Assembly (NCBI GenBank): GCA_946413265.1
Contig: CAMKJU010000003.1
Location: 9,087-73,086 of the forward strand
Direction: 5' to 3'
DNA: 64,000 bases
Source of the DNA: an uncultured Lentisphaerota bacterium
Lineage (GTDB): Bacteria > Verrucomicrobiota > Kiritimatiellia > RFP12 > UBA1067
Positions within the stretch are counted from its first letter, which is position 1, and every line of letters begins with the position of its first letter. The position numbers and the translations under genes were made by a program. The notes under the pieces are model-generated. The model had not been told where the DNA came from. It searched no databases and saw only the letters and a program-made list of their open reading frames with translations. Below are positions 1 to 23,386 of the stretch, in pieces.

Positions 1-1497
1 GCCGAGGTGAAGAGCATCCCCGGTTCGCACCGGCTCGTCGCCACTGCCACGCCACACCACGGCATCACCGGCGGTTCGCTCTACATCCTCGACCCGCGCA
101 AGGGCGAGGACGGTCTTGCGCCGATCACGCGCCTCACGCCCGAGGTCCCCTTCCCCGAAAGCGAGGGATGGAAACAGCCCGGCACGTACGCAGCTCCCAT
201 GCCCGTCAACGACACGCTGTTTTTCGCGAGCTACTGCGACGATCCAGGGTGGTATCCGCATGGACATCCCCAACATGTCGGCGGCATGGCCGCGTGGCCG
301 GAGCCGCGTTCCAGCGCGATTTGGCTTGTCGATACGCTTGGCGGACGCGAGTTGATCTACAAGGACCCCGCCTACGGCACGTACAACCCAATTCCGGTTG
401 TGAAGCGGAAGAAGCCGCCCGTGCTCGCGTCGTCCCTGCCGCCGAACGCCGGCGACACGGGCGTCTGCTATGTGGAGGACTGCTACGACAGCCGCCACAA
501 CATTCCCAAAAGTTCGATCGCCGCCCTGCGCGTGAACCTCCTACACGGACAGCCAGCAGCCCGCCGCCGGACGACGAACAAGAACAGCGACATCGAACTC
601 TACAAGGAGCCGCTCGGCACGGTGCCGGTGAACCCCGACGGATCCGCGGCGTTCCGCATTCCCGCCGGCGTGCCGCTCCAGCTCCAGGCCATCGACACGA
701 ACGGCATGGCCGTCTTGACCATGCGCAGTTTCATCTACTCGCAGAAGGGCGAAGTGCAGGGCTGCACCGGATGCCACGAGGATAAGCGCTCCAGCCGTTC
801 CGTGACGCGCCACCTGGACGAAATGAAGGTTCACGACATCGCGCCTGAGGTGGATCTGGGCTACAAGGGGTGCATCCGCTACGTGCCGTCGATCCAGCCC
901 ATCTTCGACCGCAAGTGCATCTCCTGCCACGGACTTGGCAAGGCACCCAGCTTCATCGGCGCGGAGGGACACGACCGCCTCGTGCGCGACAAGCAGGTGG
1001 CGTTCATCCCCCGCAACGGCGGGACGACGGTTTCGAGTCCGCGCGAATACTTCGCCGCCGCAAGCCCGCTCACGAAACGGTTGATGTCGGGACATGGTGC
1101 GAAACTCACGCCGGACGAATGGCGCACGCTCGTCCTGTGGATGGACCTCGCCGTGCCGGAGTTCGCGCTCGGCGGCTATGGCTGGAATTTTCCCGAAACG
1201 CGTGAAATCAATCCGGACGGCGAGAAGGCGCTGCGTGCGGCCATCGCGAAGAGGGTCGGCGCGGACGTCGCGGCGCAGCCGTTCGACGCGCTCGTGAACC
1301 GCGCTGACGAAACGAAGAGCCGCGTGCTCTGGCTGTGCAACGCGAAAGACCGCGACGAACTGCTCGCTCTCTGCCGAAAGTCGCTCAAACCGCATCCTGC
1401 CCAGGACATCCAGGGTACGTGCGGACGCGACGGCGCATGCGAATGCAATAGCTGCTGGGTGCGGCGCGGCGGATACAACGTTCCGAAAAGGAGGTAA
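1..1497 (+). CDS. 5'-partial exported protein with two CxxCH haem-c motifs (planctomycete-type cytochrome-c-like C-terminal region)
   Basis: ORF is open to the window edge (track 7..1497). Motifs CTGCH and CISCH are present. IQPIFDRKCISCHG resembles PSCyt1-type domains. Function is inferred from motifs only. Confidence 0.55.
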   Translation, partial: AEVKSIPGSHRLVATATPHHGITGGSLYILDPRKGEDGLAPITRLTPEVPFPESEGWKQPGTYAAPMPVNDTLFFASYCDDPGWYPHGHPQHVGGMAAWPEPRSSAIWLVDTLGGRELIYKDPAYGTYNPIPVVKRKKPPVLASSLPPNAGDTGVCYVEDCYDSRHNIPKSSIAALRVNLLHGQPAARRRTTNKNSDIELYKEPLGTVPVNPDGSAAFRIPAGVPLQLQAIDTNGMAVLTMRSFIYSQKGEVQGCTGCHEDKRSSRSVTRHLDEMKVHDIAPEVDLGYKGCIRYVPSIQPIFDRKCISCHGLGKAPSFIGAEGHDRLVRDKQVAFIPRNGGTTVSSPREYFAAASPLTKRLMSGHGAKLTPDEWRTLVLWMDLAVPEFALGGYGWNFPETREINPDGEKALRAAIAKRVGADVAAQPFDALVNRADETKSRVLWLCNAKDRDELLALCRKSLKPHPAQDIQGTCGRDGACECNSCWVRRGGYNVPKRR

Positions 1498-1503
1498 AGA
1501 CAG

Positions 1504-4500: not shown

Positions 4501-7020
4501 GCCTCGACGCTGACCGGCGATTTGACGATCAAGACCGATAGTTCGGTGGCGTTCAACGTGAACGCGGCAACGAGCGTGAGCAACTTCTTTGTGCGCGCCG
4601 CGACGAACGCGGTCGTCACCATGACAGTCTCCGGTGGATCTTTTGTTTCCACAGAGGCGATCGTCAAGAGCGGCGTCCTGAAGCAGGGCAGTGCAAACGC
4701 GCTCGGCGCGACACCGAAGGTGACGGTCGAGGACGGTGGCACGTTCGACTTCGACGGCAAGGTGATTGGCGACGGCGAGGCTGTTTCCGGGAAGGTTGTG
4801 ACCGAGTTCCACATCGCGGGCGCGGGCGCGGGCGACTGGCCGTGGGCGCTCACGTCTTCCGAGAGCATGACAAGTGGCAAGAATATCTGTATGCTCCACT
4901 TGGATGCCAATGCGACGATTGGCGGCGCAAAAGAGCTGTGGATGGGGGTGCGCAACGGCGCCGGCTGGAGCGCTGCCAACAAAAACCTGAACCTCAACGG
5001 CTTTACGCTCACGAAGACGGGCACGGGGGCGCTGCAGATACGCAGGCCATACTCGAGAGACGAAGGTGCGATAGATGTCCAGGCCGGAACGTTGAGAGTG
5101 AGCGGCTGGAGCAATGCGAATGCGGCGTATGGAGCGAGCTGCGTCAGCAACGTCGCGCTTGTCGTGCATGAAGGTGTAACGGCGGAGAATAGCGTAGGCT
5201 ATCCTCTCTATTTCAAGGCGCTTGACTGTCGCGGGGGAACGCTGACGACCTCCGCAAACGCGTTCGGCATTTGGGAGACGCTGTCCGGGCATGGCACGAC
5301 GGCGAAGCTTTCGTTCGGCGCCGGCGCGACGGCGACGCTTGACGGCAACCTCACGGTGTCCAGCGCAATGACGGCTGCCGGGGCGCTCTCGCTGACGCGG
5401 GCGGCGGGCGTGGAGACGAACGTCACCGTCGCGGCGACGGGGACGCTGACGGCATCTGGCGCGATCACCGTCGGCGCGGGCGTGATATTCAACATTGGCG
5501 CCAATCGTCCGACGGCGACGCTAACGGTCGCGGACGGTGCGACGATAGTCCTACGCAAGAATGATGACCTTGAAGTGAACATCGTTCTCAATGGCACGGC
5601 TAGGCCGCAGAACGTCGTCGTTTACGACACGGACGGCATGACGGTAATTTCAGACCCGACCATCACATACAATTCCGGCGAAGGCACGTTGACCATACGC
5701 GTCGTCTCGCCACATTGGAGGAACAACGACGGCACGGGGTCGCTCGACAGCGCGGCGAACTGGAATGTGATGCCGGAGAGCGGCGACAAAGTCATTCTGG
5801 AACTTTCAGACGACACGTTGATCACTGTAACCAACACGTACAATCTGGGCGTCATGACCGTGACGGGCACGGGCAACGTGACGTTCACGGGCGATGGAAG
5901 CATTGGCGCGACGACGCTCGACGTCGCTTCCGGCCAGACGGTCGATACAAGCGGGAAGCTGACCGTGTCCGGTTTCACAGGCGCGGGAAATGTCGTTCTC
6001 ACGCCCGCCTCCGACACGCTCGCGATTTCGTCCGCCTCGACGCTGACCGGCGACATGACGATCAAGACTGACACCAACACGGCGTTCAGCGTGAACGCCG
6101 CGACGAGCGTCCGCAAGTTCTACGTACACGCCGCGACAAACGCGGTCGTCACCATGACGGTCGGCTCCGGCGGTTCGTTCAAGGCGACCTCTGAGGCGAT
6201 TGTGCAGCACGGCGTTCTGCAGCAGGGTAGTGCAACTGCGCTCGGGACGACGCCCAAGATCAGCGTCGAGGACGGCGGCACGTTTGACATCAATGCAAAG
6301 ACCATCCGGCAGGAGACGCCGATCTACATCGCGGGCGCGGGCGCGGGCGACTGGCCGTGGGCACTCGCCACGTCCTCTGGTGCGATGGCAAGCGGCAACT
6401 ACCTCTATGACCTTTACCTGACGGCGGACGCGACCATCGGAGCCGGGCAGTTCAAGTTGGGGCGCAGCAACAAGAATTCCTTCATCTATCTGAACGGGCA
6501 TACGCTCACCGCGAAATCATGGGTGACGCTCAGGTGCATCAACACAATGGCAGGCACACTCGACCTCCAGGCCGGCGCGACGTTCAACGCCTACAACAAC
6601 CTCAATAAGCAGACCGCATACAGGGGGACGACGATGATTGTCCATCAGGGATTCAACTACAACAACCAGACGGACAGGGAAGTGTACATCTCCTACCTGA
6701 AGATGTACGGTGGTACGATAGGTTACGGCTCCACCGCGAGAGATTTCGGCGTGTGGAACGAGCTTCACGGATACGGCACTGTCAAGAGGCTCGTGATGGG
6801 GTCTGGCGCCAAATACTACCCAGACGGCGCGCACTACCTCGAAGCGTCAGAAAAGCTTTCGGGCACGATGATCATCGACCTGGGCGACATTGACCTGGCC
6901 ACGGTAAAGCGCATCCCGCTCTTCAAGGTCGGAACGGCCGACATGCTGCCTGCGCCGGAGGCGTTGCAGTTCGTCGGTGATTACTATAGAAAGAAATGGC
7001 GGAGGGTTGATGGGGGTTGA
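1504..7020 (+). CDS. giant secreted C10 (streptopain/SpeB-like) cysteine peptidase-adhesin with signal peptide, I69-like propeptide, C10 domain, chitobiase-C-like and LamG-like domains and two PATR-like beta-strand repeat blocks; native 3' end displaced by prophage
   Basis: TTG start with hydrophobic N-terminus. Catalytic Cys context YPCGCVATAFAQTMRYF and His context DAGHSILTDGYG. ASIYYTLDGSTP, FYDFRFYDRAFTASEA and GTGNVTFTG.GSIGATTLDV repeats. The last ~13 codons (DYYRKKWRRVDGG) are prophage-end sequence. Confidence 0.85.
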   Translation: MKRGTKLFSMFATTMGVALSAFGAGVTGDDAKGAVTGWVRLREALGDEIDAELESVATYPGADGRGEFHVVSLKGGGYVITSGDTEITPILGYSKTGTFDADENSPMWALLTADVAARAAAVEASGGTTASVQQQGVRLAAASGGTTASVQQQDGGTASVQQQEGNADQWSRLMAAGKSGGKRLQAKMSSPPADLRVASFVRSKWGQSTATSGNGYTHNYYNNYTPNKYPCGCVATAFAQTMRYFEFPNTSVTPKTFTCKVSGTATDLTMQGGTYDWAHMPYVPREVTYDWNNVIGIAKLTSDAGISVCMSYKSGGSSSSSSRVGDSFVSTFGYSNAIMDYESGGVRGNTFKKNVIPSLDAKLPVILGIQGRPTGSATADAGHSILTDGYGYYNNQLYIHLNMGWSGSDDAWYTPADSDTGAIINSSGYDFTNITCTVFNIFTNATQYSVIASGRVLDQSGEPISGATVTAKYNSTTYATATSDAYGVYALILPPTSSTRTYTVNATCFGYTSTGARSVSASRTVGDDVIKDGNNYTGSFYNRASNSNSYDNDITMESANLPQAATPTSATAAEFGTSASVTLTCSTAGASIYYTLDGSTPTVSSTLYTGPITLTKTTTVKALAAKSGYARSDVFTRTFVSAAAIDEFYFRHDFSNGTRVFTAGEGSGLTRDQTSSTDSNAKAVEGPDGPGTAHHPGNVWGQFEDPTVLHGAWSAAMSLCMDATETGILVSFGRLNKADQKEVALLSSSTKSNFYFKVMTTDSNKAKSVENTFTVVTTNDLTVGFHSFVVAYKPASDVLNGIGTFDIYCDGVLVRTVSTDTPKLLGADVGGMQYCMFMSGGSDLTALGAVSSQANDAVAFYDFRFYDRAFTASEAAKYAAAYYPYDPNTPAQWTNNDGTGSFDNAANWANGRVPHSGDFIVNISGDTAIAVANTYNLGAMTVQGTGNVTFTGAGSIGATTLDVASGLTVDTCGKLTVTGFTGAGNVVLTPASGTLAISSASTLTGDLTIKTDSSVAFNVNAATSVSNFFVRAATNAVVTMTVSGGSFVSTEAIVKSGVLKQGSANALGATPKVTVEDGGTFDFDGKVIGDGEAVSGKVVTEFHIAGAGAGDWPWALTSSESMTSGKNICMLHLDANATIGGAKELWMGVRNGAGWSAANKNLNLNGFTLTKTGTGALQIRRPYSRDEGAIDVQAGTLRVSGWSNANAAYGASCVSNVALVVHEGVTAENSVGYPLYFKALDCRGGTLTTSANAFGIWETLSGHGTTAKLSFGAGATATLDGNLTVSSAMTAAGALSLTRAAGVETNVTVAATGTLTASGAITVGAGVIFNIGANRPTATLTVADGATIVLRKNDDLEVNIVLNGTARPQNVVVYDTDGMTVISDPTITYNSGEGTLTIRVVSPHWRNNDGTGSLDSAANWNVMPESGDKVILELSDDTLITVTNTYNLGVMTVTGTGNVTFTGDGSIGATTLDVASGQTVDTSGKLTVSGFTGAGNVVLTPASDTLAISSASTLTGDMTIKTDTNTAFSVNAATSVRKFYVHAATNAVVTMTVGSGGSFKATSEAIVQHGVLQQGSATALGTTPKISVEDGGTFDINAKTIRQETPIYIAGAGAGDWPWALATSSGAMASGNYLYDLYLTADATIGAGQFKLGRSNKNSFIYLNGHTLTAKSWVTLRCINTMAGTLDLQAGATFNAYNNLNKQTAYRGTTMIVHQGFNYNNQTDREVYISYLKMYGGTIGYGSTARDFGVWNELHGYGTVKRLVMGSGAKYYPDGAHYLEASEKLSGTMIIDLGDIDLATVKRIPLFKVGTADMLPAPEALQFVGDYYRKKWRRVDGG
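1887..1993 (+). repeat. three tandem in-frame copies of the 24-nt motif GACAGCAAGCGTACAACAGCAAGG (starts 1887, 1941, 1971)
   Basis: Exact copies read directly from the sequence. Spacings of 54 and 30 nt are multiples of 3. Each copy is translated as TTASVQQQ in the propeptide-to-catalytic-domain linker. Confidence 0.95.
4170..4850 (+). repeat. intragenic duplication, copy 1 (PATR-like block)
   Basis: Protein segment QWTNNDGTGSFDNAANW...GAGAGDWPWAL recurs at 5707..6365, with long near-identical nucleotide runs (acgggcaacgtgacgttcacgggcg...). Confidence 0.85.
5707..6365 (+). repeat. intragenic duplication, copy 2 (PATR-like block)
   Basis: HWRNNDGTGSLDSAANW...GAGAGDWPWAL is colinear with 4170..4850. 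Confidence 0.85.
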
Positions 7021-13876: not shown

Positions 13877-14404
13877 ATGAAAAAACTGATGATGACTGCG
13901 CTCGCCGCGATCGCGGCGGCGATGACGGGATGCACCTCCACCTCCGCTGAATGGGGCGGGGAGCGCGTGATCACGGGCGCGGACGGGAAGCCGCTCGTCG
14001 CCAATGACGGGACCGTGCAGAAGGCGAAGGAGCCGGTCAGGCTCTCCAGCTGGCGGCACTGGATCGACACCCACGTCGACACGGCGAAGCTGGACGTGGA
14101 GAAGGACAGGATCGAGTTCACGATGAACGGCTACAAGGCGGAGCCGAGCGAGGAGCTGAACAAGCTGGTCGAAACCTCGCTCAAGGGCGCCGCCGAACTC
14201 GCCGCCAAGGTGGGCGCGGCCATCGCGACGAGCGGCGGCAGCGTGGCGGGGGACGCCGCCTACACGGCGCTCCGCAACGCGATCTCGAAGTACATCTCCA
14301 AGGGCGGCGACGCCTCGAAGGCGAAGATCACCTGCGAGAACGGCAACTGCACCATCTCCGACGGCACCGTGACGGAAACGTGCACGGACTGCATCGCAAA
14401 ATGA
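13877..14404 (+). CDS. lipoprotein
   Basis: Signal peptide with lipobox AAMTGC. Confidence 0.65.
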   Translation: MKKLMMTALAAIAAAMTGCTSTSAEWGGERVITGADGKPLVANDGTVQKAKEPVRLSSWRHWIDTHVDTAKLDVEKDRIEFTMNGYKAEPSEELNKLVETSLKGAAELAAKVGAAIATSGGSVAGDAAYTALRNAISKYISKGGDASKAKITCENGNCTISDGTVTETCTDCIAK

Positions 14405-14414
14405 GGAGGCGACC

Positions 14415-14546
14415 ATGCCCCAAGAAGAATACGACAAGCGCCTCGCAGAACTCGAGGCCGAGGCCGACCGGCTCGGATGCTGCGTGATTCCGGCGCATCC
14501 GATCCCGCCTCCGGACGAACCCCGCAAAACAGACGCGGGCAACTGA
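14415..14546 (+). CDS. small hypothetical protein (43 aa)
   Basis: AGGAGG lies 5 nt upstream of the ATG. Not in the ORF track because it is under 60 aa. Confidence 0.4.
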   Translation: MPQEEYDKRLAELEAEADRLGCCVIPAHPIPPPDEPRKTDAGN

Positions 14547-14712
14547 CCTTGGCGCGGCACGGGATCATGCATACGGCGGGCGAACCATCATCCGGCATGT
14601 GGCCGCCTCGCCGGTGCCCGGCGGGCGTGCCGCGGTTCTAACTACACCGCCGGGCTAGACTCCTCGGCTCGCCCGCCGCCCCGGGCCCAATGTCGGACGG
14701 GCGGCAGTTCTA

Positions 14713-14748
14713 GTGAATAGCGAAGAGTGAATAGTGAATAGGTGAAAG
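14713..14748 (+). repeat. tandem heptamer array (GTGAATA/GTGAAAG)
   Basis: gtgaatagcgaagagtgaatagtgaataggtgaaag lies immediately upstream of the ATG at 14750. Confidence 0.85.
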
Positions 14749-14749
14749 A

Positions 14750-14899
14750 ATGAGATCAAATCACTGCTGCTACACGCCGATCACGGTGTCGATGTCCACA
14801 TTCAGCATCCAACTACCGCCATATCCGCGCAGGGTCTCGCAGAAGGAACGCCGCAAGAAGGCACGCTACAGGCGGAGCCAGGGAATCAGGGTGAGGTAG
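14750..14899 (+). CDS. small basic hypothetical protein (49 aa)
   Basis: GGTGAAAG RBS-like sequence upstream. Arg/Lys-rich C-terminus. Confidence 0.3.
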   Translation: MRSNHCCYTPITVSMSTFSIQLPPYPRRVSQKERRKKARYRRSQGIRVR

Positions 14900-14917
14900 G
14901 GAGCAGTTACAACCAGC

Positions 14918-15559
14918 TCACACGTCGAGCTTCTTTTTCAAATCGCACATTGACGGCGGATCGTCGGGCTTCTTACACCGTTTCTTGATTCTGTTCAATT
15001 CTTTTTCTACACTCTTCCGCATCTGCCAGACGCGAAATCTGGCCCACCGTCCACGTATGATTTGCCAGAGGCAAAACAGCGGATAAGGCAGCAACACTGC
15101 CAGCGTGACGTTGTAGTACCACTGAAAAACAATTATCAAGACGCTCGCCAGCGCTGCGCACATCATGACGCGCTTCATGAACATGCCGGAATCCTTGGTG
15201 TCGCCCAGAAACTCGGCGTCCTTATTTTCTATGTATTTCTGGAGCTCGTGAAGCCGCGATCTGAATTCCTTATGTCCTTCTTTGTCCGTCAGACTTTCAG
15301 CATCCTCTATCCACTGAGCGTCCTTGATGCCCTTTTTACAAGCGACAAAGATTGCATGTACGCCTTCGTATACTGACACGCGTGCCTTTTGAATCGTTGC
15401 CGCCCAGGTGTTGATCGTGAATGCGATTGCCCACGCCGCCGAATCGTCTCGGCTCGTCATCAGCCAGGCCCAGAAAGCTTGCAGACAGGAAACGACACAT
15501 CCACATATAGAAATGGCGTCGGGATCCGCTCCCGACGCCACCGCATCCGCCAGAATCAT
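14918..15559 (-). CDS. multi-pass membrane protein (moron gene 2)
   Basis: Hydrophobic segments ISICGCVVSCLQAFWAWLM, AAWAIAFTINTWAATI and VMMCAALASVLIIVFQWYYNVTLAVLLPYPLFCLWQII. AT-richer than its neighbours by eye. 4-nt overlap with the upstream gene. Confidence 0.6.
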   Translation of the reverse strand: MILADAVASGADPDAISICGCVVSCLQAFWAWLMTSRDDSAAWAIAFTINTWAATIQKARVSVYEGVHAIFVACKKGIKDAQWIEDAESLTDKEGHKEFRSRLHELQKYIENKDAEFLGDTKDSGMFMKRVMMCAALASVLIIVFQWYYNVTLAVLLPYPLFCLWQIIRGRWARFRVWQMRKSVEKELNRIKKRCKKPDDPPSMCDLKKKLDV

Positions 15560-16065
15560 ATCGCCGTTCCTGCCTTGTAAAGTGCGTCAAACTTGGCCTG
15601 GGCGAGGCTCGCGAGTTCCGCCTCGTTGACGCAGAACGTGGCTCTGTCGTTTGCCACGTCATACTCAAGACGCACAGCCTTGTCGTCCATGACCGCGAGG
15701 TTGATGCCGATGTTTTCCGGATGCGCCGCCCTGCGGATGTGGCTTCTCAGTTCAGGGTCAATGCCCTCAAGATGGGTAAGCGCTTCGGGGGTGACGACGA
15801 GCAAGGAGACCGCAACGCTCCCTCCCTTAACAGCTTTTGTGAGGGCATCTATGACACACGGACTCCACACCTCCGGATTCATGCGCTGCGCGACAGCGCA
15901 GAACGAATGTTTTGCGTGACCAATCATCTCTTCGATGATGATCGCGGCATGCTTCGGACTCGAGTTCTCGATTCGTCTGAACCCATCGGCTTCAAGCATG
16001 GCACACACTGCCTGACGGTAATCGTCAAGCAAGCGTTCATTTCGTACCCTGTCCTGCTCGTTCAT
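15556..16065 (-). CDS. cytoplasmic protein with degenerate PLD-like fold pattern (moron gene 1)
   Basis: The pattern IIEEMIGHAKHSFCAV...VIDALTKAVKGGSVAVSLLVV...INLAVMDDKAVRL resembles a PLD/Nuc-like domain, but INL replaces the HxK catalytic motif. This is a weak by-eye call. Confidence 0.35.
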   Translation of the reverse strand: MNEQDRVRNERLLDDYRQAVCAMLEADGFRRIENSSPKHAAIIIEEMIGHAKHSFCAVAQRMNPEVWSPCVIDALTKAVKGGSVAVSLLVVTPEALTHLEGIDPELRSHIRRAAHPENIGINLAVMDDKAVRLEYDVANDRATFCVNEAELASLAQAKFDALYKAGTAI

Positions 16066-16172
16066 CTCTGCGTTCTCCTGTTATCCCAAAAAGGGACGCG
16101 GACATTTTACCACAGCGCGGGTGGATTGCAAGCCGGAAATGTTGCGTTTGTTGCGCGCAACTTTCCGCCCCC

Positions 16173-16556
16173 TCACCCCTCACCAATCATCTTGCGCATC
16201 TTGTCCGCGAGCTTGCGGTGCGGGCAGCGGGCGCACTGCGGCAGCTCGCCGGGCACCTGCGGGGATCGGCTCTGACGTGAATCCCTGCAACCGGACGCCG
16301 GCATGACCGCCCCAGATCCCCGCGACTCAGCCCCCACCCTCTCCCTCTCATCAACCGACGACGACGAAACGCCGAGCAGATCGTTGGGGGTGGTGCCAAG
16401 AACTTGTGCGATATGTACAAGTTGGTCTAATGATGGCTCTCGCCGCCCTTTTTCATAATGACAATACACGGCTTGCTTGAGACCCAGACGGGCCGCAAAC
16501 ACACCTTGCGCTTCATTTCCTCGAAGCGCGACCAGTCGCTCAGAAAGGCAGCTCAT
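16173..16556 (-). CDS. XRE-family HTH repressor (Mu c / CI analogue)
   Basis: HTH QGVFAARLGLKQAVYCHYEKGRREPSLDQLVHIAQVLGTTPNDLL. Divergent from the early operon. Confidence 0.8.
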   Translation of the reverse strand: MSCLSERLVALRGNEAQGVFAARLGLKQAVYCHYEKGRREPSLDQLVHIAQVLGTTPNDLLGVSSSSVDERERVGAESRGSGAVMPASGCRDSRQSRSPQVPGELPQCARCPHRKLADKMRKMIGEG

Positions 16557-16676
16557 AAAAAAATAATACGAATTGTAAAAACACCCTTGCGCTCCGCTTA
16601 TACGTTTTGTATAATATCCCGCGTTGCCGCAAGGAGGGCAACGAGAAGTTTATCAAAAACGGTCAGAGGATAGAAG
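16557..16676. promoter_or_regulatory. divergent immunity/early promoter-operator region
   Basis: Minus-strand TATTAT (16568..16563) lies 6 nt before the repressor ATG. Plus-strand TTGCGC-17nt-TGTATAAT lies at 16587..16615. Direct repeats ATACGnnTTGTAWAA (16566..16580 and 16598..16613) overlap both -10 elements. Hairpin CGTTGCC/GGCAACG at 16622..16643. Confidence 0.6.
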
Positions 16677-16853
16677 ATGAAAAAGTTCGATACGATTCTG
16701 AGGCCATGGCGCGAGGCGCCGGTCTCGCAGGTGGCGGCGCGGATCGGGCGCTCGAAGAGCCACATCTGGCGCGTGCTCAAGGGCCAGCGCAAGCCGGGCC
16801 GCGAACTCGCGGCCGTGCTGCGCGACATGGGCTTCAAGGTGGAGGTGGCGTGA
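16677..16853 (+). CDS. Ner/Cro-like small HTH regulator (58 aa)
   Basis: VSQVAARIGRSKSHIWRVLKGQRKPGRELAAVL. First gene of the early operon. Under 60 aa, so absent from the track. Confidence 0.65.
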   Translation: MKKFDTILRPWREAPVSQVAARIGRSKSHIWRVLKGQRKPGRELAAVLRDMGFKVEVA

Positions 16854-16996
16854 TGTGGTGTTCAATGTGCCCGTTCTTCGCGGACTGCGAGGATCCCGCC
16901 AAGCTCGGCGGTGGATGCGATTGCGACGGCACCGACGACTTCGGCGTCGATCCGATCGACGATTTCGATGACGACGAAAAAGTGGAGGTGGAGTGA
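16853..16996 (+). CDS. small acidic Cys-rich protein (47 aa)
   Basis: ATG overlaps the upstream TGA. MWCSMCPFFADCED...DDFDDDEK. Confidence 0.35.
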   Translation: MWCSMCPFFADCEDPAKLGGGCDCDGTDDFGVDPIDDFDDDEKVEVE

Positions 16997-16997
16997 C

Positions 16998-17273
16998 ATG
17001 GAGAAGAAAAGGACGAAGGTGATACCAGGCGAGATCGAGCAGAGGATAGATAATCTGACTTTCTATGTTGAAAGCTATCTCAGGTCTGCAAAGCAAACTC
17101 TCTCATACGCCATTCCGCCGTTTGTCAACGAGATCAATGGATCGGCCACGGCCCTTGGTGGGGCCATTAGGTACATTGAGCGCGTAGAGCGCCTAGCCGA
17201 ACGCCGGATTGACGAGTTGAGATTCATCGCCGCGAAAAAGGCCGAAATCGCCAAGGCAAAGGAGGGAAAGTGA
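16998..17273 (+). CDS. hypothetical early protein (coiled coil)
   Basis: In-frame ATG 2 nt after the upstream stop, and a 4-nt overlap with the next gene. Confidence 0.5.
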   Translation: MEKKRTKVIPGEIEQRIDNLTFYVESYLRSAKQTLSYAIPPFVNEINGSATALGGAIRYIERVERLAERRIDELRFIAAKKAEIAKAKEGK

Positions 17274-17524
17274 TGAAACTGCGCAAGATTGACGTTCTGC
17301 TCGCAGAGCACAAGCCTCTGTCCGTAGAAGAAGGCAATGTCAAGAAGCTTGGCAGATATTACTACGAGGTCGAATGCCCGTTCTGCGGGAAAAAGAACCT
17401 TGTCTTCTTCAGGAACTTCTGGAAAGGCACGAGGTGCAAGAACAAGGACTGCCGCGCCATGTTCGACCGTTGCAACAGTGTGGCCTGGAGAGACATGGTG
17501 CCAGTGAGTGAGGCTAGAGCCTAA
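17270..17524 (+). CDS. zinc-ribbon protein
   Basis: CPFCGKKN...CKNKDC. Confidence 0.5.
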   Translation: MMKLRKIDVLLAEHKPLSVEEGNVKKLGRYYYEVECPFCGKKNLVFFRNFWKGTRCKNKDCRAMFDRCNSVAWRDMVPVSEARA

Positions 17525-17547
17525 ACAACAAGCGGACAACAGCAAGG
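17524..17547 (+). repeat. 24-nt motif copy (variant aACAaCAAGCGGACAACAGCAAGG) starting at the stop codon of 17270..17524
   Basis: Read directly from the sequence. Followed by AAAAGGAACCGAAG and the ATG at 17562. Confidence 0.85.
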
Positions 17548-17561
17548 AAAAGGAACCGAAG

Positions 17562-19058
17562 ATGAAACAGGAAAAGCCGCACAAGTTCTACGTCGGCGAG
17601 GGGTACGGCATCTGGGAGATGGACGGCGAAACCCACCGCCGCTTCCCCGACGTGTTCTACCGCGCGAAGCCCGGCGACTCGGCCGGCAAGTACACGATCG
17701 GCGACATGGCCGTCATGAACCAGCCGACAACCAAGAAGCGGTTCGGCATGTTCGTGATCGCGAACGTGGAGAGCGGCGACTTCGGCGGCACGGGGCTGAA
17801 GTACAAGCTCACGGTGCATCCCTACGGGACTCCGGAGGAGATCAGCGGACCGAAGCCCGCCGCCCCGATACAGCAAGCGGACAACAGCAAGGAAAAGGAA
17901 CCGAAGATGAACACTGCCAGTGGCGGACGGTGCAGATTCACAGATGAAAATGGATTCTGCACGAACGAAAACATGCAGGGCGGCGGATTCCGGTGCTTCG
18001 GCGCAGGGTGCGAATGCAGGGAGCCGATTCGCGGACCGAAGCCCGCCGCCCCGATACAGCAAGCGGACAACAGCAAGAAAGAACCGAAGATGAAAAGACC
18101 TACCTACAAGATGCAGCGCATCAAGCTCGCGGACTGCAAACCACACGCCGACGCGGAGGCCTACTCGGCCTCCACCGAGGACCGCGCCGCACTCGGCAAC
18201 TCAATCGAGGAGACCGGGGTGCTTTCGCCGATCGCCGTGGTGCCGGACGAGGACAGCAAGCGTACAACAGCAAGCAACGACGCCGAACCCCAGAAGTGGT
18301 TCGTGATCGACGGCATCGGGCGCATGAACGCCCTCATCGCCGCCGGCGAGACCGAGACCGACGCCCAGGTTTTCGACCTCGGCGATCTGAGCGTGGCCGA
18401 GTTCGTGGTGTGCAAGAACGCCATGATGCGCAAGGTCACAACCGGCACGCGCGTGATGGCATACCTGAAATGCCATGAACGCGAAGTACTGGCCGCTGCG
18501 GACCCGGAGAAGTACCAGGGCCGTAAAGAAAGCAAGTGGCGCAACAAGGTGGCTGCGGTTTCACGTGAAACCGCAGCCGACGAAAAGGGTTGGGGCGCGA
18601 AGGAGATAGCGGAGCGCATCGGGGTGTCGAAGAACGACGTGCTGGCGGGGATTGAGCTGCTGAAGGAGGTGAGCGGGGAGACAGAAAGCGTACAACAGCA
18701 AGGGAAGTACGTGCAGCTGGACCTCTTCGAGACGATGGACTCGGTGATGCACGGCGAGACGCCGATCAGGCGGTGGAAGGCGGCGGCGAGCGGCAAGGTG
18801 AGCAAGGTGGGCGGCAAGGCGGCCGCCGACTACGTGGGCATCGGCGCGCGCACGATGGTGAGCCTCATCGGGCTGTTCGAGAACTGGCAGACGGTCCCGA
18901 TGGAGAGCCGCGGGCCCATCGTCGAGCGGTTCAAGCTGGCGTTGGAGGCCGCGCCGGAGGATTTCAGGGCGGTGCTGGAGGATGTGGTTGGATCTCACGC
19001 AGAGGCGCAGAGAGGCAGAGAGCGCAGAGGGAAGTTCCGCAAAGGGACGCGGTGGTAG
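17562..19058 (+). CDS. ParB-like nuclease-domain protein with two stop-less N-terminal modules (candidate internal starts at 17907 and 18090)
   Basis: C-terminal part IKLADCKPHADAEAY...LGNSIEETGVLSPIAVVP...WFVIDGIGRMNALIAAG follows a ParB/Srx-like pattern. The modules are joined by the repeated GPKPAAPIQQADNSK(E)KEPKM linker. Confidence 0.65.
   Translation: MKQEKPHKFYVGEGYGIWEMDGETHRRFPDVFYRAKPGDSAGKYTIGDMAVMNQPTTKKRFGMFVIANVESGDFGGTGLKYKLTVHPYGTPEEISGPKPAAPIQQADNSKEKEPKMNTASGGRCRFTDENGFCTNENMQGGGFRCFGAGCECREPIRGPKPAAPIQQADNSKKEPKMKRPTYKMQRIKLADCKPHADAEAYSASTEDRAALGNSIEETGVLSPIAVVPDEDSKRTTASNDAEPQKWFVIDGIGRMNALIAAGETETDAQVFDLGDLSVAEFVVCKNAMMRKVTTGTRVMAYLKCHEREVLAAADPEKYQGRKESKWRNKVAAVSRETAADEKGWGAKEIAERIGVSKNDVLAGIELLKEVSGETESVQQQGKYVQLDLFETMDSVMHGETPIRRWKAAASGKVSKVGGKAAADYVGIGARTMVSLIGLFENWQTVPMESRGPIVERFKLALEAAPEDFRAVLEDVVGSHAEAQRGRERRGKFRKGTRW
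17847..17909 (+). repeat. extended ~60-nt unit (GGACCGAAGCCCGCCGCCCCGATACAGCAAGCGGACAACAGCAAGGAAAAGGAACCGAAGATG), copy 1
   Basis: Contains the 24-nt motif core at 17869..17892 plus an SD-like AAGGAAAAGGAA and an in-frame ATG. Confidence 0.9.
18033..18092 (+). repeat. extended ~60-nt unit, copy 2 (3-nt shorter)
   Basis: Motif core at 18055..18077. Ends in an ATG that starts the ParB-like module. Confidence 0.9.
18252..18274 (+). repeat. 24-nt motif copy, in CDS frame 1 (DSKRTTAS)
   Basis: Exact GACAGCAAGCGTACAACAGCAAG. Confidence 0.95.
18680..18703 (+). repeat. 24-nt motif copy (GACAGaAAGCGTACAACAGCAAGG), in CDS frame 2 (TESVQQQG)
   Basis: One mismatch to the consensus. Confidence 0.9.
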
Positions 19059-19082
19059 GACAGCAAGCGTACAACAGCAAGG
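19059..19082 (+). repeat. 24-nt motif copy forming the entire intergenic gap between the ParB-like stop and the transposase ATG
   Basis: TAG(19056-58)|GACAGCAAGCGTACAACAGCAAGG|ATG(19083). Confidence 0.95.
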
Positions 19083-20816
19083 ATGACCATGGAAAAGGCT
19101 GCGGAGAGATCGGCGAAGGTCGGCGAGGTGCGGCGGCTCGTGGCGGAGGGCGCGACGCTGGACGCCGCGCTGCTGGCGGCGGGGGTGAGCGAGACCACCT
19201 ACCGCCGCTGGGCGGCGAAATTCGACGCGGGCGGCGTTGCGGCGCTCTCGGACGCGCCGAAGAGCGGGCGGCCGCCGGTGGTGAAGCTCGACGAGGACGA
19301 GAAGAAGTGCCTGCGGCGCATCTACCTCCAGTCGAACCGGGCGGAGCGCAGCGGCTCGATGACGATGGCGGCGCGGATCGCGGCGCACGACCCGGCGACG
19401 TGCCTCCGGCCCGAGACGCGGGCGGCGATCCTCGCGGAGCGCTCCTCGAAGCACCACCTTCCGGTGGAGGTGCGCCGGGCGATGCGCGAGGTGTCGCCGG
19501 TGGCGGTGGCGCGTTACCGCGACCCGCGCGAGGGGCAGAACAACGGCATCTACGTGCCGGGGTGGCTGCGGCGCGACGAGGAGACGGGGCGGTTGCTGCT
19601 GCCGGGCGAGCGGCAGGTGTGGGACGACGCGAGCGTGAACGTGGCGGTGGCGGTGCCGTGGGCGGGGCGCGGGGACAAGGCGGGCGACCGCTGGGGATGG
19701 CGCGCGGCGCGCTACCAGCTGCTCGCCGGGATCGACTGCGCGACGGACTTCTTCTGCGGGTTCGGCTACGTGATGCGCACGAGCGACGGGTACCGGGCGT
19801 GCGACGTCGCGAACGTGATGCACGAGGTGTGGCGTCAGCAGGGGTACATGCCGAAGAAGGTGGTGCTGGAGGGCGGCAGCTGGCAGGCGAAGCCGACGAT
19901 GGACTTCCTGCGCACGGCGGGCGTGGGGGTGGTGGACGCCAAGGGCCGGCCGAACCAGAAGCTGGTGGAGAACTACTTCAACCGCCTCTGGACGGCGCTC
20001 TCGATCTTCCTTCCGGGCTACGGGCAGATCGGGCGGTACCGTGGCGAGATGCGCAAGGAGAACCTGAACTGGATGAAGGTGCTGAGCGGGAGCGCGGATC
20101 CGAGGAAATACTTCCCGACGCTGAAGACGTTTCTGGAGGCGCTGAACAAGGCCGTCGCCTACCTCAGGTGGGAGAAGGTGGAGAGCCGGATCTACGGGAC
20201 GTGGAGTCCGGAGGAGCTGTACCAGGGCGCGGCGGCGAACGGTCTGCCGCTCGTGGAGGGTCTGGAGCGGTACGCGATGCCGGTGGCGGCGCGCCGGACG
20301 CTGCGTCGCGGCGGGATGGTGTTCGTGACGGCGGAGACGCAGCTGGAGGGACTCAGGCACGAGTACGCCTTCGCGACGCGGGACGGCTGGAAGTACGACG
20401 GCGCGCCGGTGGTGGTGCGCTTCGACCCGGTGACGGCGGCGGCGCGGGGGGCGTCGATCGAGCTTGCCCAGGCGTGGCGCGACTTCCGCGCGGGGACGGT
20501 GATCGACGGCGCGGCGCCGTGCGTGAGCGCGCCTCCGGACTTCGTGAACGACGCGGGGCTTTGGGACCTGCGCGGCGCGGGCCGCCACGAGCAGCGGGCG
20601 AACCGCGCGGCGGTGCGCACGGTGGTGACGGCCTACGACACGCGCGGGCCGGTGCGGACGAGGTTCGAGGACGGCGAGGAGAAGGGCTGGGGGCTGCGCG
20701 GCGGCGTGCCCGCGGCGGCGGAGGCGCCGGAAGCGGCGGAGGAATGCGACAGCAAGCGTACGACAGCAAGGCTTGCGGCCCTGGAGGCGGAGGAGCGGAT
20801 GCTGGCCTACGCGTGA
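19083..20816 (+). CDS. Mu-like DDE transposase (MuA analogue)
   Basis: N-terminal HTH (GVSETTYRRWAAKFDAGGVAALSD). Candidate DDE residues in VWDDASVNV, LAGIDCATDFF and VVLEGGSWQ. Positioned upstream of the MuB-like ATPase. Confidence 0.8.
   Translation: MTMEKAAERSAKVGEVRRLVAEGATLDAALLAAGVSETTYRRWAAKFDAGGVAALSDAPKSGRPPVVKLDEDEKKCLRRIYLQSNRAERSGSMTMAARIAAHDPATCLRPETRAAILAERSSKHHLPVEVRRAMREVSPVAVARYRDPREGQNNGIYVPGWLRRDEETGRLLLPGERQVWDDASVNVAVAVPWAGRGDKAGDRWGWRAARYQLLAGIDCATDFFCGFGYVMRTSDGYRACDVANVMHEVWRQQGYMPKKVVLEGGSWQAKPTMDFLRTAGVGVVDAKGRPNQKLVENYFNRLWTALSIFLPGYGQIGRYRGEMRKENLNWMKVLSGSADPRKYFPTLKTFLEALNKAVAYLRWEKVESRIYGTWSPEELYQGAAANGLPLVEGLERYAMPVAARRTLRRGGMVFVTAETQLEGLRHEYAFATRDGWKYDGAPVVVRFDPVTAAARGASIELAQAWRDFRAGTVIDGAAPCVSAPPDFVNDAGLWDLRGAGRHEQRANRAAVRTVVTAYDTRGPVRTRFEDGEEKGWGLRGGVPAAAEAPEAAEECDSKRTTARLAALEAEERMLAYA
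20748..20771 (+). repeat. 24-nt motif copy in the transposase 3' region (CDSKRTTAR)
   Basis: GACAGCAAGCGTACGACAGCAAGG. Confidence 0.95.
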
Positions 20817-20890
20817 CCATTTCCCCGCGCGGAGAGGCTAGGACGCTCCGCGCGGGGGATTCAACAACCAACAAACCAAAGGAGCACAAG

Positions 20891-21070
20891 ATGCACACAG
20901 CAAGCAGAGAATGGGCGGACCGGGTGGCCGCCCGGAACGCGGTGGAGACCGCGAAGGCGCGCGCCGACGAGGCGCGAAAAAACGAGGCGCTTGCCGCGCA
21001 GGGCTTTCTGCCCCTCACCTACGGGGAGCAGCTGATCCCGCTGAGCGCAGCCGGGAAGGAGGCGGAGTGA
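20891..21070 (+). CDS. small hypothetical protein (59 aa)
   Basis: AAAGGAG RBS with an A/C-rich leader. Stop overlaps the next start. Confidence 0.45.
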   Translation: MHTASREWADRVAARNAVETAKARADEARKNEALAAQGFLPLTYGEQLIPLSAAGKEAE

Positions 21071-21408
21071 TGAAGAGAACGAAAGATGACGGTAACCGCC
21101 TTTCACAGTTGCTCGGTTCAATCAAGCGAGCCAGGACAACCGTGTTGGGCAGTACGGCCCAAATAGTCAAACTAGGTGAATGCGAGGATTCCCAGGCCAT
21201 TACTGCATTGAACAGAGCCGCCGTAAAATGCCTGCATCAGTCATGCTACTGGCTTGATCAGGCCGTGGATACACTTGAGCATTCGATCAAGAGAGTCAGA
21301 GAGACGGAAGATGCGGACAGCAAGCGTACTACAGCAAGGGTGCAGCCGCTTTCGCCGGAGGCGGAGCTTGCGGCCACGGTGGCGCGGCAGAAGGGAGAGA
21401 ATGCATGA
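21070..21408 (+). CDS. hypothetical early protein
   Basis: ATG overlaps the upstream TGA. Contains a motif copy read as DSKRTTAR. Confidence 0.5.
   Translation: MKRTKDDGNRLSQLLGSIKRARTTVLGSTAQIVKLGECEDSQAITALNRAAVKCLHQSCYWLDQAVDTLEHSIKRVRETEDADSKRTTARVQPLSPEAELAATVARQKGENA
21316..21339 (+). repeat. 24-nt motif copy (GACAGCAAGCGTACTACAGCAAGG)
   Basis: Read directly from the sequence. Confidence 0.9.
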
Positions 21409-21491
21409 GCGGGGACGAGATCATATTCTTCGTGTGGCTGGCCACGTGGCTGCCGTTCGCGATCGCCTACTTCATCAGCGAGGCGAAGTGA
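21405..21491 (+). CDS. tiny membrane peptide (28 aa)
   Basis: IIFFVWLATWLPFAIAYFI. Overlaps the upstream stop. Confidence 0.3.
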   Translation: MSGDEIIFFVWLATWLPFAIAYFISEAK

Positions 21492-21512
21492 CAGCAAGAA
21501 GAAGGAGCAAGC
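21490..21512 (+). repeat. decayed motif copy (GACAGCAAGaagaaggAGCAAGc) filling the gap before the MuB-like ATG
   Basis: Both outer ACAGCAAG/AGCAAG halves are retained. The upstream stop TGA overlaps the first bases, as at 27789. Confidence 0.6.
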
Positions 21513-22463
21513 ATGAAGAACCAAGTGGAAAACGAACTGGTGGAGACAGCCGCGAAGATCGCGGCGTGGGGCGAGTCGCACGGCATGAGCCGCGCGCAGC
21601 TCGTGCGCAACTTCACCGACCTCGGCAGCGAGAAGAGCTTCCGCGACATCTCGGCCGGGAACCTGGAGGGCTACAACGCGGAGAACCAGCTCACGAAGTA
21701 CCGGGCGGTGTACGCCACGATGGAGGAGCTGGCGAACCAGGGCGGCGAGGAGCGCATCTACGACGACCTCGGCACCGTGGTGAAGATCCGCAGGGCGTTC
21801 CTGGGCGTGGTGAAGGCCACGGGCACGAATCGCGTGCTGATCGTGCAGGGCGAAAGCGGCGTGGGGAAGACCACCGCCGTGGGCCTCCTGCGCGGCAAGT
21901 ACGGCACGGGGCGCATCAGCTACGTGGAGGCGAGCGACGTGTGGGCGGACTCGCCCAACGCCTTCCTCGGCGCGATCCTGCGCGCGCTCGGCGTCACGGA
22001 GCTGCCGGCTGGGCGCGTGCAGCGTCTGGAGGAGGTGCAGGCGCGGCTTGCGATCTCGCGGCGGTGTCTCGTGATCGACGAGGCGCACCACCTCGGCCCG
22101 CACTGCCTCAACACGGTGAAGACGCTGGTGAACACGACGCCGGGGGAGTTCATCCTGGTGGCGATCCCGACCTTGTGGAACAAGCTGCAGGCGCACGCCT
22201 ACCAGGAGGCGAAGCAGATCGCGACGAACCGTCTCTCGGAGCGCGTGAAGCTCACGCTCGACGAGGCGGACATCCGCACGTACCTCTCGAAGCGGTTCAA
22301 GGACGCCCAGCCGGCGGAGCTTAAGGTTGCGGCGAAGATCATCCGCCCCAACGCGCTCCTCGCGGGCAACTACGCCTTCGTGCGCGACGTGGCGCGCGAG
22401 CTCGCCTCGCTCGAGGCCGACGCGGTGAGCCGCGCGGTGACGGCGGTGACGGGGAGAAGGTAG
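21513..22463 (+). CDS. MuB-like AAA+ DNA transposition ATPase
   Basis: Walker A GESGVGKTT and Walker B LVIDEAHHL. Downstream of the transposase. Confidence 0.8.
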   Translation: MKNQVENELVETAAKIAAWGESHGMSRAQLVRNFTDLGSEKSFRDISAGNLEGYNAENQLTKYRAVYATMEELANQGGEERIYDDLGTVVKIRRAFLGVVKATGTNRVLIVQGESGVGKTTAVGLLRGKYGTGRISYVEASDVWADSPNAFLGAILRALGVTELPAGRVQRLEEVQARLAISRRCLVIDEAHHLGPHCLNTVKTLVNTTPGEFILVAIPTLWNKLQAHAYQEAKQIATNRLSERVKLTLDEADIRTYLSKRFKDAQPAELKVAAKIIRPNALLAGNYAFVRDVARELASLEADAVSRAVTAVTGRR

Positions 22464-22503
22464 TGGAGTGTAAAATGTAAAGTGTAAAGTGTAAAGTGAA
22501 AGG
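22463..22503 (+). repeat. tandem heptamer array (GTGTAAA)n
   Basis: gtggagtgtaaaatgtaaagtgtaaagtgtaaagtgaaagg lies between the MuB-like stop and the DUF3164 RBS. Confidence 0.9.
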
Positions 22504-22512
22504 ACAAACACA

Positions 22513-23199
22513 ATGGCAAAGCAAGTGACGACGATGCGCGACTCGAACGGGAACGACGTCCCGCTCAAGTACGTGAGCAAGTACGACAAGGCGAAGGACA
22601 AGGCCGTGCGCAAGGTGCTGGCCCGGTTCCTCCGCGCGCGGGAGCTGCTGGAGGGCGTGGTCGCCGAGACCATCGCCGAGCTGGAAGCGCTCGCGGACAC
22701 GAAGGAGAAGCTTGGCGCGAAGGGAAACTTCTCGGCGCGCAGCTTCGACGGCCTCATCCAGGTGAGCATCCGGCAGCAGTACAACATCTTCCTCGACGAG
22801 CGCGTGGTGAAGGCGCGCGAGCTGATGCTCGGCTACGTGGAGAAGGTGCTGGCGAAGGTGGGCGGCAACGACGCGCAGGCGCTGCGGCTCATCGTGGCGG
22901 AGGCGTTCAAGGCGAACGCGCAGGGCTTCCTCTCGACGGGGAAGATCATGTCGCTGCTCCGGATGGAGATCGACAACGCCGACTGGCGCGAGGCGAAGAG
23001 GATCCTCCAGGATTCGATCAAGCCGCAGAAGGGAAAGCGGTATCTCGTGTGCGAGCGGCGCGCGAGCACGCAGGCGGAGTTCCGCCCGGTGCGGCTGGAC
23101 ATCGCGGATTGCTGGCCGGAGGAGGATGAGAGTGTAAAGTGTAAAATGGAAAGTGTAAAATGCGAAGAGCAGAAAGGAGGTGATCAAGATGCCGGTTAA
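22513..23199 (+). CDS. DUF3164-like Mu-family protein
   Basis: MRDSNGNDVP...GAKGNFSARSFDGLIQVSIRQQYNIFLDERV is colinear with the DUF3164 pattern. Confidence 0.65.
   Translation: MAKQVTTMRDSNGNDVPLKYVSKYDKAKDKAVRKVLARFLRARELLEGVVAETIAELEALADTKEKLGAKGNFSARSFDGLIQVSIRQQYNIFLDERVVKARELMLGYVEKVLAKVGGNDAQALRLIVAEAFKANAQGFLSTGKIMSLLRMEIDNADWREAKRILQDSIKPQKGKRYLVCERRASTQAEFRPVRLDIADCWPEEDESVKCKMESVKCEEQKGGDQDAG
23132..23162 (+). repeat. second (GTGTAAA)n array, inside the 3' end of the DUF3164-like CDS
   Basis: gtgtaaagtgtaaaatggaaagtgtaaaatg is translated as SVKCKMESVKC. Confidence 0.85.
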
Positions 23200-23386
23200 G
23201 TGGACAAGGCCGAAGAAGGCCGAAGACAGCAAGCGCACGACAGCAAGTGCGCCGAAGCCCGAGAAGCCGAAGGGCGACAAGCCCCAGGCCGAAGAGCTGA
23301 AGCCCGAGAAGCCGAAGGGCGGCAAGCCGAAAGGCGGCAAGCCGAAAGGCGACGATAAGCCCAATGGCAAGAAGGAGGCCAAGTGA
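23189..23386 (+). CDS. small lysine-rich protein with KPKG repeats
   Basis: AAAGGAGG lies 8 nt upstream. PEKPKGDKP...PEKPKGGKPKGGKPKGDDKP. Confidence 0.5.
   Translation: MPVKWTRPKKAEDSKRTTASAPKPEKPKGDKPQAEELKPEKPKGGKPKGGKPKGDDKPNGKKEAK
23225..23247 (+). repeat. 24-nt motif copy (GACAGCAAGCGCACGACAGCAAG)
   Basis: Two mismatches to the consensus. Read as DSKRTTAS. Confidence 0.85.

Follow-up and report, generated by a model that had tools for sequence, protein, structure and literature searches.

What do two small genes beside the repressor of a Mu-like prophage do for the element that carries them? The genes lie at positions 14918-16065 of a 64,000-nucleotide stretch of contig CAMKJU010000003.1, from an uncultured Lentisphaerota bacterium; the whole stretch is referred to here as the window. 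Comparison with related and distant loci showed that the two coupled genes form a self-contained cassette that moves horizontally. The whole unit is about 1.5 kb long and has four parts: an extended -10 promoter, a pseudo-enzyme with the phospholipase D (PLD) fold (gene 1), a membrane protein with a transmembrane (TM) hairpin (gene 2), and a hairpin followed by a structured 3′ element.

Results

The gene pair

The two genes are located as follows:

15556-16065, minus strand: gene 1, 169 amino acids, predicted cytoplasmic protein of PLD/Nuc fold, without the catalytic His and Lys
14918-15559, minus strand: gene 2, 213 amino acids, predicted all-helical inner-membrane protein, translationally coupled to gene 1 by ATGA

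A preliminary description of this region had reported two coupled genes with a 4-nucleotide overlap on the repressor strand, and open reading frames (ORFs) were found at precisely those positions. The overlap consists of the sequence ATGA and an AGGA-type ribosome-binding site precedes each gene. Close homologues sharing 55-100% identity were collected for gene 1 (n=25) and gene 2 (n=28). These homologues have many invariant columns, and both are real genes.

The structure of the gene 1 protein was modelled with AlphaFold2 from the alignment of 25 homologues. The model, with a predicted local distance difference test score (pLDDT) of 90 and a predicted TM-score (pTM) of 0.86, has a long N-terminal helix followed by a PLD-like domain. 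A Foldseek comparison with the PDB gave 81 matches at E<=1e-3, and those listed are all PLD-fold proteins. The top matches were the effector domains of TrmBL2 and TrmB (5bpi, 5bpd, 3qph, 2f5t) with E values of 9e-9 to 1e-6 and TM-scores of about 0.6. They were followed by NucT, Nuc, FAM83, vaccinia F13, Zucchini and PLD3, with E values of 1e-8 to 1e-4 overall, and the BFVD matches of the model were poxvirus F13-like and PLD proteins. At the level of amino acid sequence the window protein alone had no Pfam PLDc match and its close-family profile matched the PLD 1f0i weakly (E=0.18), while a profile of the broad family covered the whole domain in its alignment with Nuc (E=1.1e-4) and PLD3 (E=3.6e-4). 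Here Asp127 coincides with the Asp of HxK(x)4D, Asn122 occupies the position of the Lys and Gly120 that of the His. The place of GSxN is taken by Arg132-x-Glu134, with Glu134 at the Gly. The catalytic motif HxK(x)4D(x)6GSxN is absent from gene 1, and 61 distant relatives have no conserved His or Lys at these positions. The model, the Foldseek matches and the profile alignment agree with the initial assignment of gene 1 as a PLD-like protein without HxK. A role as a canonical nuclease or phospholipase was ruled out because the His and Lys are absent; as far as the sequence tells, canonical HKD chemistry is impossible for this protein.

The 61 distant relatives share 23-56% identity and have in common invariant N34, D127, R132 and E134, together with near-invariant Y16, H39 and A40. 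The HKD pocket of gene 1 is remodelled to Asn122/Asp127/Arg132/Glu134 plus Asn34/His39, and conservation of the polar residues suggests a functional pocket. No helix-turn-helix (HTH) match was found in Pfam, and with a single N-terminal helix in 169 amino acids the winged-helix domain of TrmB is not present.

The gene 1 family is large. When 1.84 billion cluster representatives were searched with the close-family profile, 579 proteins, each representing a cluster at 50% identity, were retrieved at E<=1e-3, including 117 at E<=1e-10. The best 150 of the 579 are stand-alone proteins, mostly of 150-240 amino acids. A further protein search with the broad gene 1 alignment contributed six more usable relatives only. 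Among the 61 relatives, Pfam matches were to DUF7931 (PF25559; 37/61, best E 9.6e-12), PLDc_2 (37/61, best E 2e-5) and iHKD (PF24402; 5/61). NCBIfam returned weak generic PLD matches only, and the PADLOC profiles matched by relatives (DrmC, MkoB, MkoC) were weak and at the level of the PLD domain. The window protein had no match to the DUF7931 hidden Markov model (HMM) at E<=1, whereas the 37 homologues mentioned, which were found with the gene 1 profile, do match it. Judged from these profile comparisons, window gene 1 is a divergent branch that is tied to DUF7931 only transitively.

The product of gene 2 had been described as having three or four TM segments and a basic tail. Its membrane nature and basic tail were confirmed. 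Hydropathy analysis identified only two strong TM helices, which are adjacent (residues ~127-147 and ~150-170) and flanked by basic residues, plus one or two weaker hydrophobic helices in the N-terminal region (16-34, 41-57). These are followed by a hydrophilic helical middle, a predicted cytoplasmic linker, and the basic C-terminal tail closes the protein. A near-invariant Asn50 is located in the hydrophobic or amphipathic N-terminus and an invariant Pro158 in the TM hairpin (~127-170). Gene 2 had no match in Pfam, PADLOC, the PDB or Foldseek, and the profile of the partner family likewise had none in Pfam, PADLOC or the PDB. Generic helical bundles returned by Foldseek for the low-confidence gene 2 model (E>0.7) were disregarded.

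The pair in distant loci

Distant gene 1 homologues were located by look-up and by scanning GTDB genomes and JGI metagenomes with a degenerate DNA motif (NFAVMDxxAxRxE). A gene 2 homologue was found directly 3′ of the gene 1 homologue, at a gap of 0-50 nucleotides, in 21 of 22 assessable loci. In the lone exception, L019, the partner is cut to 47 amino acids and gene 1 is intact. The distant partners (163-287 amino acids) have the same layout: an N-terminal helix of the form F-x-E-I-x-F-G-x-N is joined by a helical linker to a TM hairpin that contains an invariant Pro, and the protein ends in a basic tail. All of them were connected by an iterative HMM seeded with the close family of gene 2; E values ranged from 3e-6 to 1e-48 (Z=1e6), and none of 460 composition-matched shuffles used as decoys scored better than E ~10. 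The motif had four matches in GTDB, all in Verrucomicrobiota metagenome-assembled genomes. The pair is therefore found together outside this phage, and neither protein falls in an ordinary phage lysis or structural family; the two window proteins of the pair had no significant match in Pfam, PHROGs or PADLOC. Several searches were negative. A search of 185,579 GTDB species genomes and of IMG/VR with the close-family gene 1 profile found no relatives, and IMG/VR also contained no match to a degenerate DNA motif or to a query with the neighbouring DUF1353 gene.

Some copies of the pair are associated with mobile elements. In locus L032, the pair and an IS1595-family transposase (DDE_Tnp_IS1595, E=2e-36) are enclosed by perfect 24-bp terminal inverted repeats, GAGGATTATGCACTTGACAAATGT, and the element is flanked by an 8-bp direct target duplication, TTTTACAC. 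Because the pair is inside inverted repeats flanked by a target duplication, it is a transposon passenger, a result that applies to the distant homologous pair of L032 only and not to the window copy. IS1595 or IS1-like transposases also adjoin the copies in L018/L022/L023 and L033; clear terminal inverted repeats were searched for in L022 and L033 and were not found. Other neighbours of the pair include a tyrosine integrase (L024), D12 and Eco57I-type methylases (L021, L029), Mrr_cat (L010) and a PDDEXK_9 ATPase (L009). In L015 a patatin gene is on one side and a DUF6036 nucleotidyltransferase on the other, and in L016, another prophage-like locus, the neighbour is an XRE repressor. The mobile contexts fit a module for conflict or addiction.

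Boundaries of the cassette

The pair is bordered by the following elements:

16104-16131, minus strand: predicted sigma-70-type promoter (TTGCAA, 16 nucleotides, TAAAAT; extended -10 TG) in the gap that separates the repressor from gene 1
14706-14917, minus strand: window-specific spacer of ~210 extra bases that separates the gene 2 stop codon from the hairpin
14713-14740, minus strand: four tandem copies of the 7-nucleotide repeat TATTCAC (the third copy degenerate), inside the same ~210-nucleotide insertion
14671-14705, minus strand: GC-rich 35-nucleotide hairpin, GCCGCCCGTCCGACATTGGGCCCGGGGCGGCGGGC, without a U-tract
14547-14670, minus strand: structured non-coding element of ~120 nucleotides, 3′ of the hairpin, with the long closing stem GCGCGGCAC...GTGCCGCGC

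The promoter is the only promoter-like site in 14300-16950. Its TGnTAnAAT sequence and an upstream TTGC or TTGA are kept in six related loci with diverging flanks, one of which, L035, is not in a prophage. Considering its position, strand and promoter, the cassette is probably transcribed in the lysogen. At the other end, the hairpin occurs once in the window and was matched, with one degenerate position allowed, in 10 related loci, the non-prophage loci L035-L037 included; in every one it lies just 3′ of gene 2. It begins ~15 nucleotides after the gene 2 stop in L001 and L040. The hairpin, which has no U-tract, is probably the terminator of the cassette.

The 3′ element is more conserved than the neighbouring genes, and RNAalifold predicted 42 pairs in it, three of them with compensatory changes. 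A comparison of 14350-16700 with Rfam produced no match. Hairpin and element may act only as a terminator, as a bidirectional terminator or as a small RNA, and the structured element could be an additional regulatory component. A small ORF within the conserved element (MPDDG...) was rejected as a gene because indels between loci break its frame. Hairpin and element together occupy 14547-14705 on the minus strand of the window, 11180-11340 in L001, 11282-11440 in L005 and 8651-8790 in L035.

The pair in related prophages

All related Mu-like prophage contigs recovered (L001-L006, L039, L040) carry the pair in the same slot; the sampling was seeded with the pair itself and no relative without it was seen. 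The repressor of L005 is 84% identical to that of the window. L001 has a different repressor and has kept the pair, a heteroimmune arrangement. The pair diverges faster than the phage core: with respect to L005, identity is 79% for gene 1 and 61% for gene 2, compared with 96% for MuA, 97% for MuB and 88% for the portal protein. The pair is also found beside host genes without a prophage in L035-L037.

In L035-L037 (for example, L035 6947-8790) the pair, promoter and hairpin are accompanied by a degenerate repressor C-terminus and adjoin an AraC-type regulator of the host. The available sequence showed none of the other genes of this prophage, and the locus may represent the domesticated remnant of a prophage. 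In L001 the full prophage is likewise bordered by an AraC-type gene, one with the same Pfam domains.

The base composition of the pair, which the preliminary description had pointed out as poorer in GC than that of the rest of the phage, is low: 0.56 for gene 1 and 0.52 for gene 2, versus 0.62 for the window. At third codon positions (GC3) the values are 0.66 and 0.63, versus 0.80-0.93 in the flanking phage genes. The repressor (0.63) and two early ORFs (0.65 and 0.72) are likewise low in GC3. Therefore, the anomaly belongs to the immunity region as a whole and not to the pair alone.

The prophage around the pair

The genes upstream of the pair are:

16173-16556, minus strand: XRE-family prophage repressor (HTH_3, E=2e-7), upstream of the pair and on the same strand
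16677-16853, plus strand: Ner/Cro-like HTH gene, divergent from the repressor, first gene of the early operon

The early operon continues with ParB-like, MuA-like (HTH_28/29/32), MuB-like (AAA_22), DUF3164 and Mu_F genes, which make up one arm of the Mu-like prophage. The other arm comprises DUF1353, lipoprotein, Mu gp25-like, terminase and Portal_Mu genes; the neighbours of the pair that had been called lysis-like are the DUF1353 protein and the lipoprotein. The host flank (1-7020) codes for an HZS_alpha/cytochrome c protein and a giant Peptidase_C10 protein.

The layout of the prophage (window ~7100-40000; also L001 and L005) is unusual for a Mu-like element. Terminase and Portal_Mu occupy the extreme left end, on the side of the repressor, and their transcription is directed outward; Mu_F and the rest of the head and tail genes carry on from the early operon in the other arm. 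The repressor is separated from the prophage end by ~8 kb instead of adjoining it. The lipoprotein gene beside the pair (13877-14404, plus strand) is hypervariable, with 32-34% identity to its L001 and L005 counterparts versus 74-92% for the neighbouring genes.

The early region has other features. The plus-strand ORF 17270-17524 (84 amino acids), which is the early ORF with a GC3 of 0.72, matches the Lar restriction-alleviation zinc ribbon (PF14354) below threshold (E=3e-4) and is a possible anti-restriction gene. The ParB-like ORF (17508-19058, plus strand, 516 amino acids) stays open across three repeated leader modules (GPKPAAPIQQADNSKEKEPKM), each of which contains a 22-nucleotide motif. 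The alignment of this ORF with the ParB-like genes of L001 and L005 is confined to residues ~121-516, and the N-terminal part may represent separate small genes, or the product may be internally initiated. The 22-nucleotide motif, ACAGCAAGCG(T/G)AC(A/G/T)ACAGCAAG, occurs 17 times in the window versus 0 expected, at 1888-1993, 8362, 17525-23247 (9 copies), 26636, 27790 and 28275 (all on the plus strand) and at 44603 (minus strand). Several prophage copies are 1-35 nucleotides before start codons (one ends at 19081 and MuA starts at 19083), and the host flank contains three copies. A role as a host-type leader or translation signal is possible. The motif was not found upstream of the repressor, gene 1 or gene 2, which have AGGA ribosome-binding sites and a sigma-70-like promoter. 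Short tandem repeats on the plus strand of the early region (22448-22496, 23119-23167, 23251-23355) comprise GTGTAAA-type repeats after the MuB-like and DUF3164 genes and one 15-nucleotide coding repeat for a peptide rich in Lys, Pro and Glu.

Discussion

A candidate exclusion module

The inactive HKD site of gene 1, its TrmB-like fold and the polar constellation conserved in 61 relatives, taken together with the conserved promoter and hairpin, the 579 clusters, the 21/22 pairing, the IS1595 passenger and the neighbours related to defence and mobility, led us to propose that the cassette is an exclusion module. A mechanism of exclusion or abortive infection, with the membrane protein gated by gene 1, is proposed by analogy and has in our estimate a little less than an even chance of being correct. 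The soluble gene 1 protein would bind the cytoplasmic N-domain of the gene 2 protein and keep the membrane protein inactive. A cue from an incoming phage (a nucleic-acid end, a nucleotide or another phosphate-bearing ligand in the dead HKD pocket), or loss of the gene 1 protein, would free the gene 2 protein. Once freed, it would oligomerise and depolarise or permeabilise the membrane, and the superinfecting phage would be aborted or excluded. The same logic would make the cassette an addiction module for its carrier element. The neighbours of the pair, its retention in a heteroimmune prophage, the copies outside prophages and the faster divergence argue for a role in conflict.

The nearest known analogues are prophage pairs of a soluble and a membrane protein. 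The cassette has one RexAB-type feature: as in lambda RexA/RexB and the RexAB-type system of P. putida (PP_5643/5644; PMC12894663), the two genes are beside the repressor and co-oriented with it, the soluble protein first and then a small membrane protein with several helices. The membrane partner of the P. putida system damages the membrane when triggered (PMC12894663). However, there is no kinship in sequence or fold; gene 1 has a PLD fold and not the RexA fold, and RexB has four TM helices, whereas gene 2 has one clear TM hairpin and a large cytoplasmic helical domain. A second parallel is the pair gp30/gp31 of mycobacteriophage Butters, cytoplasmic and membrane proteins expressed from the prophage that interact and exclude heterotypic phages (bioRxiv 10.1101/2020.04.27.053744). 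These are also a cytoplasmic and a membrane protein of a prophage, but their sequences are unrelated and their host is from another phylum, and the comparison is by analogy only.

For gene 1 alone, the C-terminal effector domain of TrmB/TrmBL2 (PDB 5bpi, 3qph, 2f5t) offers a non-catalytic PLD-like fold after a long helix, which in those proteins serves ligand binding or regulation. Gene 1 differs in that it has neither the winged-helix DNA-binding domain nor the second sugar-binding subdomain, and identity is 16-18%. The single-HKD nucleases (Nuc, NucT, Zucchini; DrmC, MkoC) have the same fold and size and share the motif Asp, but in gene 1 the His/Lys and GSxN are replaced (Gly120, Asn122, Arg132-x-Glu134). 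The partner genes of DISARM and Mokosh (helicase, methylase) are not in the cassette, and neither protein of the window pair had a PADLOC match. The DUF1669 pseudo-PLD domain of FAM83 is likewise a PLD fold without catalysis, and its role is that of a scaffold for protein interactions. This domain belongs to eukaryotes and lacks a membrane partner, and the comparison is one of analogy only.

Phage morons are units of promoter, ORF and terminator, as in HK97 and HK022. The cassette resembles them in its own promoter, the hairpin that follows, its deviant composition and a predicted transcription independent of the neighbouring operons, and to this extent the view of the pair as a moron, put forward when the region was first described, is upheld. 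It differs in that it is present in every related prophage seen instead of being polymorphic among them, its low GC3 is common to the repressor and the cassette also exists outside phages. As first described, the pair could not be matched to a named defence system; this still holds, and the cassette is not in any system of PADLOC v2. A literature search (DUF7931, iHKD, PLD-like plus membrane anti-phage pairs, TrmB/PLD) retrieved no description of the pair and no mention of DUF7931.

Several points weigh against an exclusion module. Expression in the lysogen is deduced from position, strand and promoter only, and both pore formation and a physical interaction between the two proteins are pure inference. 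The AlphaFold2 model of gene 2 is all-helical and of low confidence (pLDDT 63). Neither protein matched a PADLOC model, and tblastn searches with gene 1 and a typical DUF7931-like relative found no match among INPHARED phages and PLSDB plasmids. About one third of the distant contexts resemble ordinary chromosome, with an ABC transporter with SpoU, an alcohol dehydrogenase, an AMP-binding enzyme or TetR nearby. Finally, the presence of the pair in every related Mu-like prophage could point to a role in the life cycle of the phage itself.

Other explanations

The foremost alternative, which we consider unlikely although it deserves attention, is that the cassette serves addiction and nothing else. 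Gene 2 would be a membrane toxin and gene 1 a more labile antitoxin, and the pair would stabilise prophages, transposons and islands without a specific anti-phage role. The cassette does have the type II-like toxin-antitoxin feature of two small coupled genes on mobile elements; they overlap, the soluble one comes first, and among their carriers is the IS1595 transposon. The pair has been kept in an apparent prophage remnant (L035-L037), and the decay of the partner to 47 amino acids beside an intact gene 1 in L019 is the order of loss expected for a toxin. On the other hand, membrane proteins of 170-290 amino acids are rarely the toxins of known protein-antitoxin systems, and the deeply conserved polar pocket of gene 1 suggests recognition of a ligand or substrate rather than simple sequestration. 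Addiction and abortive infection are also not mutually exclusive, since many toxin-antitoxin modules defend as well.

Still less likely in our opinion, and improbable, is an accessory function at the membrane that is unrelated to conflict, of the lysogenic-conversion or housekeeping kind, such as envelope or lipid remodelling or small-molecule sensing and signalling, with the PLD-fold protein as a TrmB-like ligand-binding regulator or an atypical enzyme anchored by its partner. The best structural matches, to TrmB/TrmBL2 effector domains, speak for this explanation; the invariant Asn, His, Asp, Arg and Glu could make a non-canonical active or binding site, and several distant loci are among ordinary metabolic genes. 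It does not account well for the recurrent association with transposases, an integrase, restriction-modification genes and prophage repressors, nor for a divergence faster than that of phage core genes. The distribution is also patchy, and the close family (A1) has no match in GTDB species genomes or IMG/VR.

Host single-HKD defence nucleases need to dimerise to build one active site. A dead single-HKD protein could act as an anti-defence decoy that heterodimerises with such nucleases (Nuc, DrmC, MkoC-like) and poisons them, an idea for which the PLD fold without catalytic residues and the weak DrmC/MkoB/MkoC profile matches in relatives speak. We find it very improbable: the strictly conserved membrane partner would be unexplained, the cassette is also on chromosomal transposons and beside host genes, and promoter and position suggest lysogenic and not early lytic expression. 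Least credible of all is a part in lysis, in which gene 2 would act like a holin or antiholin and be regulated by gene 1. The TM hairpin of this small membrane protein and the nearby lipoprotein and Mu gp25-like genes might suggest such a part; the pair is on the repressor strand and points away from the late genes, no PHROG lysis family matched it and, occurring as it does in an IS1595 transposon and non-phage loci and thus outside phages, it was rejected for this role.

Implications

Returning to the proposal of an exclusion module, its wider form is that the pair represents a previously unnamed, widespread two-gene immunity system, found mainly in Verrucomicrobiota and the Planctomycetota-Verrucomicrobiota-Chlamydiota (PVC) group and carried from host to host by Mu-like prophages, IS1595 transposons and islands; its catalytically dead HKD pocket would sense a phage-derived ligand and gate a new family of TM-hairpin membrane effectors. 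We put this forward with more reserve than the mechanism itself, as possible and not as probable. If exclusion or abortive infection is indeed the function, a new type of sensor, a pseudo-PLD protein related to DUF7931, and a new family of membrane effectors would be added to the defence repertoire. One example of the cassette is the passenger of an IS1595 transposon. The pair comes from poorly sampled rumen and environmental PVC bacteria, a group in which, to our knowledge, almost no defence systems have been tested. Because the cassette is compact, has its own promoter and exists as natural variants at 25-88% identity, the proposal is directly testable. DUF7931 is, as far as we know, a family without a described function, and for the several hundred clusters of DUF7931-like proteins that stand alone the cassette would offer a first pointer to function.

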